DNA of 64,000 nt from Octopus vulgaris (taxonomy: Eukaryota), in the NCBI GenBank assembly GCA_951406725.2, contig OX597826.1:8432001-8496000 (forward strand). The letters run 5' to 3'. Under the pieces are notes generated by a model. The model saw only the letters and a list, made by a program, of their open reading frames with translations. It was not told the DNA's origin and made no database searches. Below, piece after piece: positions 7,042-7,192 of the stretch. Each line of letters opens with the position of its first letter. Position 1 is the stretch's first letter. The position numbers and the translations under genes are program-made.

Positions 7042-7192
7042 ACATCGAAATTTCCCAAGACACCTGGCGAAGGCTGGAGGGTATATCAGCCGAAACGTTG
7101 TGTTACCAACAAACAAAATGAGGACAGATATCCGTCAAATGTAAATAATGTAAATAATGTACATAGTTCCTCACCTCTTGAATCTAGAACTA
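7042..7192 (+). mobile_element. short hammerhead-bearing repeat (Penelope-like/retrozyme-like); homolog at 35870-36050
   Basis: Homologous to the reverse complement of 35870-36050; starts right after (TAA)n. Confidence 0.7.
7059..7104 (+). ncRNA. minimal type-I hammerhead ribozyme motif
   Basis: GACAC-CTGGCGA-a-GGCTG-gagggtatat-CAGCC-GAAAC-GTT-GTGTT: stem I GACAC/GTGTT, stem II GGCTG/CAGCC, one core substitution. Confidence 0.6.

Follow-up and report, generated by a model that had tools for sequence, protein, structure and literature searches.

A tRNA-like head, an internal TAA tract and a predicted minimal hammerhead in the terminal repeat of a decayed, high-copy Penelope/Poseidon-type element of Octopus vulgaris

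Two related repeats in one window

What are the two short hammerhead-bearing repeats that stand directly behind TAA tracts in this part of the Octopus vulgaris genome, and what ties them, if anything, to the mobile elements that end in the same tracts? The window, by which we mean the whole 64,000-nt stretch analyzed here, holds one repeat at 7041-7196 on the plus strand (copy 1) and one at 35870-36052 on the minus strand (copy 2). They align with 132/153 identical bases (86%, E 5e-49), and both open with aacatcgaaa directly 3' of a TAA/CAA tract. A sequence-only reading of the window had described them as a non-coding, retrozyme-like element whose TAA tract is a landing pad for Dong-type LINEs. 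Its description of the copies themselves holds: they are related and follow the tract, one lacks about 30 bp, their defects differ, a merged consensus has an intact core and stems, and a Dong 3' end and a second block lie where it placed them.

By alignment, copy 1 is a fragment of the terminal repeat (pLTR) and ORF 5' end of a Penelope/Poseidon family, with a long 3' end. The roughly 30 bp missing between its two tcgaaa words include the family's start codon, so copy 1 has none. Its hammerhead words, at 7059-7104 (+), form by sequence a minimal type I hammerhead with a 5-bp helix I, a 6-bp helix II and a palindromic 2-bp helix III, and the cut is predicted after 7099; the stems are intact and one core base (A6) is altered. 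Copy 2 is a complete pLTR tail with a long 3' end, a start codon at 36029-36027 and a minimal hammerhead at 36000-35955 (-), in which the core is intact but base pairing is broken at one place in helix II and at the middle pair of helix III. In the majority sequence of 92 arms, the hammerhead core and stems are complete. Rfam at the gathering score gave no matches across the 64,000-nt window, and no target duplication was seen by eye around either copy. A different set of hammerhead-like words, unrelated in sequence to this family, lies at 2066-2112 (+).

Upstream of copy 1, the TAA/CAA tract at 7005-7042 (+) is both the family's internal tract and the 3' side of an insertion. A 5'-truncated LINE at 5650-7004 (+; zf-RVT, E 5e-6), which we take to be of the Dong/R4 clade on the strength of restriction-like endonuclease motifs, terminates at this tract and sits inside it as a bystander, with the tract's 5' side at 5385-5649 (+). 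The tRNA-like head described below was looked for upstream of copy 1 and not found; a candidate inverted stub before the Dong fragment (5368-5384) is too short to call. At copy 2, a nested repeat of about 500 bp from a separate TAA-targeted family (36150-36648, -) terminates at the 3' part of the internal TAA-type tract (36056-36148, -), and the 5' part of the tract follows at 36656-36745 (-). Beyond it, at 36746-36768 (-), is the B-box half of a tRNA-like head (96% to head positions 59-81), and because this remnant lies on the far side of the block, the block is nested inside the element. The remnant is adjoined by a decayed second R4/Dong-like LINE fragment at 36769-37330 (+).

The repeats are ends of a Penelope/Poseidon-type element

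A genome search returned 4664 first-look candidates, of which 40 were scored. The flanks of 30 loci from tail searches and 30 from head searches showed a single layout: a head of about 80 nt, a TAA/CAA tract of variable length and a 183-nt tail, the tail being the part seen in the window copies. Among arms unselected for upstream sequence, the head stood directly upstream of the tract in 31/58. Some heads have more before them, and the upstream sequence common to three of these (L075, L080, L094) encodes the end of an endonuclease. Loci with this endonuclease end run on into the head in 27/30 cases and into the tail in 26/30. Walking upstream from the endonuclease end leads to a Penelope/Poseidon-type reverse transcriptase (RT), before which the tail recurs; in L239 the same tail is present both 5' and 3' of the ORF. 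Put together, 29 nt follow the ORF stop and lead to the tRNA-like head, which bears the A and B boxes; behind it come the internal (TAA)n, the start codon, the hammerhead and lastly a tail of 30-40 nt.

The majority frame has 838 codons, starts with an ATG at tail position 21, reads through the hammerhead and bears RT and endonuclease motifs; the head begins 29 nt past its stop. Pfam RVT_1 matches the frame, 72 full-length-type homologues were found, and the C-terminus of the frame aligns with the GIY-YIG region of P0066 (E 2e-13), although the Pfam GIY-YIG model gave no score on the family's own fragments. On inspection of the translation, the Neptune zinc-finger linker is absent. We take the Penelope/Poseidon clade name from motifs; our tree contained no named reference. 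One locus (L418) is a true partial tandem, and another (L404) begins at the head and continues into the ORF. Every copy seen is broken, and the best is 97% identical to the majority sequence.

The window repeats are therefore fragments of a Penelope/Poseidon-type pLTR that includes the 5' end of an RT-endonuclease ORF. The sequence-only reading had missed that the element continues upstream of the tract and that the tail is the start of a reading frame. It was right that the repeat is mobile and bears a hammerhead, but with a tail that is the 5' end of an ORF, and short units that are not in tandem, the element is not a retrozyme.

Two other candidate arrangements were rejected. The TAA tract is not translated as poly-Asn, since the ORF starts 3' of the tract and in that frame a stop precedes the tract. 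The genome's own set of Pfam GIY-YIG matches, mostly Neptune-type, was considered as the partner and has no sequence in common with the hammerhead family; a PDB search with the Neptune-type protein returned nothing useful. That Neptune-type PLE family, present at L037, L042 and numerous further loci of this genome, is itself young: many of its 781-aa frames are open, and its 3' repeat carries a minimal hammerhead of the U3-A8 variant.

Three relatives with 56-57% identity (P0019, P0076, P0094) retain in their N-termini a peptide shadow of the hammerhead at the start of the ORF, and from these sequences the overlap of ribozyme and ORF seems to be conserved among them.

Copy number and insertion footprint

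We sampled 1.4 Mb as 140 stretches of 10 kb at even spacing on contigs C1-C30, with small contigs contributing fewer, and found the family at 16 loci, which corresponds to about 32,000 loci genome-wide (95% range 18,000-52,000). Short copies dominate, with at most 52 nt of ORF sequence upstream of the head at 14/16 sampled loci; the proportion of ORF copies relative to head copies is taken from these genome samples.

Copies insert in head-to-head pairs, and 39/42 of the pairs combine a long arm, ending at tail position 176-183, with a short arm ending at position 161 or earlier, mostly 140-158, the tail-search loci having been selected for one long arm. The family has two 3' ends, at about +120-138 and +163 from the ATG. 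Flanking duplications of at least 6 nt were found in 25/41 pairs, compared to 1.5 in shuffled pairs. Taken together, the long/short pairs and the duplications match the inverted partner and the 30-40 bp tail described for PLEs (PMC8557442). Neighboring copies on the same strand were seen at only two loci (L029 and L082), and no tandem arrays of short units were found among the extracted loci.

The TAA tract and the Dong LINE

If the ribozyme element and Dong depended on each other, Dong 3' ends should be more common upstream of the element than at other TAA tracts, as had been proposed. We scored 221 TAA tracts in the 1.4-Mb sample, 10 belonging to the element and 211 others. A Dong 3' end was upstream of 0/10 element tracts versus 12/211 others, and the 500-bp block upstream of 0/10 versus 19/211. 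All 12 sampled Dong ends were followed by a TAA tract and none by the hammerhead element. With the search loci added, Dong was found at 2/58 arms (Fisher P 0.74) and the block at 1/58 (P 0.09); over all 138 arms the counts were 2 and 5.

The idea of a non-coding retrozyme in mutual dependence with Dong-type elements does have in its favor the nested insertion in both window copies and further Dong 3' ends at three loci (L020, L026, L067). Against it, the tail codes for protein and is continuous with a Penelope ORF, the short units form no tandem arrays, neither Dong nor the block is enriched at the sampled scale, and Dong is known as a generic TAA targeter (PMC3812793). We regard this explanation as highly improbable. 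The landing-pad idea survives in part, in that TAA-targeting elements do land in the tract. Dong and the 500-bp block sit there because the tract is TAA, and with the tract internal to the element and Dong unenriched, a dependency between ribozyme, microsatellite and LINE is unsupported. That both window copies carry a nested insertion is a coincidence, in a genome where insertions abound.

The block at 36150-36648 belongs to a repeat family of about 550 bp that has 19 3' ends in the 1.4-Mb sample, is flanked on either side by TAA tracts and starts at a fixed 5' position, about 50 nt past the start of the window copy; it is likely a non-autonomous TAA-targeted element. A hammerhead-like word in this block was dropped as a candidate, as another block copy (L400) does not keep it. 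A second, more diverged Dong 3' fragment lies in the window at 48394-48784 (+) and matches the first at 84%; the TAA tract behind it has no hammerhead element. At another locus (L400/L259), a near full-length ORF copy is preceded by a single internal TAA tract that contains the 500-bp block as well as 70 nt of a Dong 3' end.

The hammerhead

The family's motif fits the minimal hammerheads of PLEs, with a short helix I, an extra base before helix II, a G10.1-C11.1 pair and a palindromic helix III. Three of the four PLE hammerhead traits listed in PMC4209133 are found here, while covariation is visible only across families. Within the family, stem covariation does not exceed that of shuffles (269/500; 12 arms), as expected of copies in neutral decay. 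The core is intact in 59/102 short-class arms, and the whole motif in 25/102 short-class and 8/48 ORF-linked arms. The same fold with other stems occurs on the sense strand behind the ORF in 10/32 distant Poseidon loci, which represent about five distinct families, six of the loci belonging to one; on the antisense strand of these loci, and in 100 shuffles, there were none.

The palindromic helix III has two pairs and needs a dimer. Because the motifs of a head-to-head pair are on opposite strands, a dimer within one transcript is impossible there. Folding of the monomer gave weak z-scores (-1.7, +0.3 and -1.8), and an unconstrained dimer fold did not yield the form with swapped helix III; neither result bears on activity. 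No pile-up of read ends at the predicted cleavage site was seen in one RNA-seq run of an ill-suited library type. One contig and two reads run from end to start as a circle would, and tandem copies in DNA would look alike. Rfam at the E-value level called no hammerhead or tRNA family in 8 element loci, in L116:2195-2520, in 6 metagenome loci or in the head of L329, a distant relative discussed below. Other short families with minimal hammerheads and C3-G8 or U3-A8 cores are present (L127, L141, L167, L116:8667-9029 and L118), some as inverted pairs and with no visible tRNA-like head.

The tRNA-like head

The head is collinear with tRNA-Thr/Arg genes of the same genome, with scores of 38-40 versus at most 25 for shuffles (against a set of 30 tRNA genes of about six isotypes). 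Its A and B boxes are near-perfect and 44 nt apart (score 24, shuffle maximum 14.5). The head does not fold as a tRNA and has lost the acceptor stem; ARAGORN called no tRNA in 30 element loci, and the Rfam tRNA model (RF00005) did not call the head. From the sequence, the head is likely a promoter and the source of most short copies.

The 5' ends of the copies point in the same direction. For arms that reach the head, 34/57 end at -6..+5, 19/57 at -7..-18 and 4/57 extend into the ORF, so that 53/57 stop no more than about 25 nt from its start; among 28 arms unselected for the head, the same classes hold 17, 9 and 2. The -7..-18 class consists mostly of mirror junctions at a small palindrome, and many of the ends within -2..+3 abut either unrelated flanking DNA or a partner arm that was cut at another place. 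A hairpin of -9.6 kcal/mol lies precisely at the start of the head and could itself cause stops and fold-back there.

This hairpin is one reason to consider that the element is an ordinary Poseidon whose 3' UTR contains a defunct piece of a SINE or tRNA and which Pol II transcribes from a pLTR promoter, its short copies being 5' truncations that pile up at the hairpin, which coincides with the break point. PLEs are indeed mostly 5'-truncated, and in two studied cases they have pLTR promoters with introns (PMC8557442). Fold-back leaves unexplained, however, the ends at -2..+3 that join unrelated flank or an elsewhere-cut partner. It also has to accommodate two boxes that are near-perfect though the acceptor stem is lost, the L404 copy that starts at the head and enters the ORF, and a second Poseidon with boxes in the same place. 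We consider this explanation rather unlikely, though it deserves to be kept in mind.

A further indication comes from terminators. Over its 2826 nt, the unit's sense strand lacks any stretch of four consecutive T (T4), where about 3 are expected by codon shuffles (P 0.024) and 2.6 by dinucleotide shuffle (P 0.051). By comparison, the Neptune-type element of the same genome has 6 T4 over 1791 nt, the 36 distant Poseidon frames together contain 178 versus 151 expected, and distant ORFs without T4 number 0/15 among those of at least 600 aa and 6/36 overall, all of them shorter than 480 aa. The signal in this family is weak, and a P that reaches only 0.02-0.05 is again compatible with an ordinary Poseidon, as is the lack of variants specific to short copies. 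At the one variable site compared (N7), T:A is 77:21 in short arms and 35:12 in ORF-linked arms, so no variant there marks the short copies as a separate lineage.

The distant relative L329 (2815-2995 of a metagenome contig) is a tandem Poseidon with a unit of 2796 nt and 38% identity to the family. Between its stop and a minimal hammerhead it has a short TAA run with boxes, and its unit has two T4 and no T5. Such A and B boxes between stop and hammerhead were found in only this 1/35 distant loci (score 22, shuffle maximum 14.9). In a tree of 26 sequences, L329 falls in the same broad clade as the family with 99% support and is not its sister, and relatives placed between the two lack the boxes. 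The boxes of L329 may mark a Pol III promoter captured a second time.

RNA-seq counts, as far as it goes, against Pol III transcription from the head. In 7595 reads from one raw run (about 6% of the run), the two strands were covered equally, 80% of reads continue into unlike sequence, and starts and ends were concentrated at no place along the element, the library type being poorly suited.

The peak of 5' ends at the head, the boxes, the absence of T4 and the boxes of L329 together suggest Pol III transcription and a SINE-like spread of solo ends. It may be that Pol III makes the solo-repeat RNA only, as a tRNA SINE that arose in the pLTR and is mobilized by Penelope, with Pol II or read-through supplying the mRNA. 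Such an arrangement accounts for the 5'-end peak and the excess of short copies without translation of uncapped RNA, and overlaps in part with the explanation that we favor; it leaves unexplained the absence of T4 across the whole frame and the L404 copy, and we judge it unlikely. The strongest form, in which Pol III transcribes a protein-coding element end to end, starting at a tRNA promoter that the element captured, with Pol III terminators cleared from the coding strand and solo ends that serve the element as a Penelope-mobilized SINE of its own, and with the same capture in L329, we put forward only tentatively, as a possibility that is doubtful as a whole; it would also call for translation of an uncapped RNA, which counts against it.

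A possible mechanism

Overall, we think it probable that the window repeats come from a decayed, high-copy Penelope/Poseidon terminal repeat with a likely Pol III tRNA-like head, an internal TAA tract, and behind it the start codon and a minimal hammerhead as predicted from sequence. What is observed here is how the unit is laid out, its connection to an RT-endonuclease frame, head-to-head insertion with one long and one short arm, duplicated target sites, and 5' ends that cluster at the head. The steps that would connect them begin with transcription from the tRNA-like head. In a tandem, Pol III would read through the T4-free 2.5-kb frame into the next repeat, while a solo repeat would give a SINE-like RNA of about 300 nt that still has the protein-binding and priming region and could be copied in trans by the element's enzyme. 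The enzyme would cut both DNA strands, and reverse transcription would start at two internal sites about 30-40 nt apart, from which mirror-image pairs would result. Cleavage by the hammerhead would require a dimer or assistance from protein, and in dispersed copies the motif decays. Dong and the 500-bp block would enter the internal tract simply as a TAA tract.

Several of these steps have precedent in Poseidon of the green anole, which in vitro shows two internal starts of reverse transcription and cutting of both strands, and whose hammerhead needs protein (PMC11167929). Like our family, Poseidon_Ac has one frame with RT plus a GIY-YIG-type domain at its C-terminus, a hammerhead that overlaps the start of the ORF, a pLTR that takes in the first part of the ORF, and two 3' ends 30-40 nt apart (PMC11167929). 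It differs in the position of the ATG, which is inside the hammerhead core in Poseidon_Ac and 34 nt before the core here; in the TAA tract, which our family has between head and ATG; and in that the available part of its description includes no tRNA-like head or Pol III boxes (PMC11167929). The ribozyme itself, by sequence, does not differ from the minimal hammerheads of metazoan PLEs, which share the short helix I, the extra base, G10.1-C11.1 and a palindromic 15.2-16.2, and which are also mostly single or on opposite strands (PMC4209133).

Other systems resemble parts of the family. The SINE-like repeats of schistosomes are short mobile repeats with a Pol III promoter followed by a hammerhead, the order that we infer here, but they are non-coding and in tandem, whereas ours is an autonomous-type coding element with dispersed and inverted short copies (PMC6765202). 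The TRIMs Cassandra, Helenus and Ajax likewise have a Pol III promoter derived from a small RNA in their terminal repeats; they are non-autonomous LTR elements, in contrast to a Penelope-like element with its own RT and endonuclease (PMC10886601). Animal non-LTR retrozymes share with the family a type I hammerhead and a Penelope-like link, but are non-coding tandem repeats with canonical hammerheads and circles (PMC7229834; bioRxiv 10.64898/2026.07.22.740005). The family, unlike these, has a coding pLTR, a minimal hammerhead and short units without tandem arrays. Dong LINEs of the R4 clade target TAA (PMC3812793) and have no tie to the hammerhead family here.

In the accessible parts of the literature, we found no tRNA-derived promoter in a PLE repeat, which suggests that the tRNA-like head is the new feature, while the hammerhead, the head-to-head insertion and the TAA preference of Dong are known. 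The main text of an octopus repeat annotation, in the portion available, makes no mention of ribozymes (PMC13282606), and the family may already be in a repeat library under another label.

Significance

The two-start model of Penelope insertion, developed in vitro, could be tested on this family in the genome, since its copies number in the tens of thousands, their 3' ends fall at two fixed places and their target duplications can be measured. If the head is a promoter, this is an autonomous retroelement that makes its mRNA by Pol III and must translate uncapped RNA, and a single locus would show a SINE arising from the end of its own partner. In practice, such copies will be mislabeled as SINEs or retrozymes.
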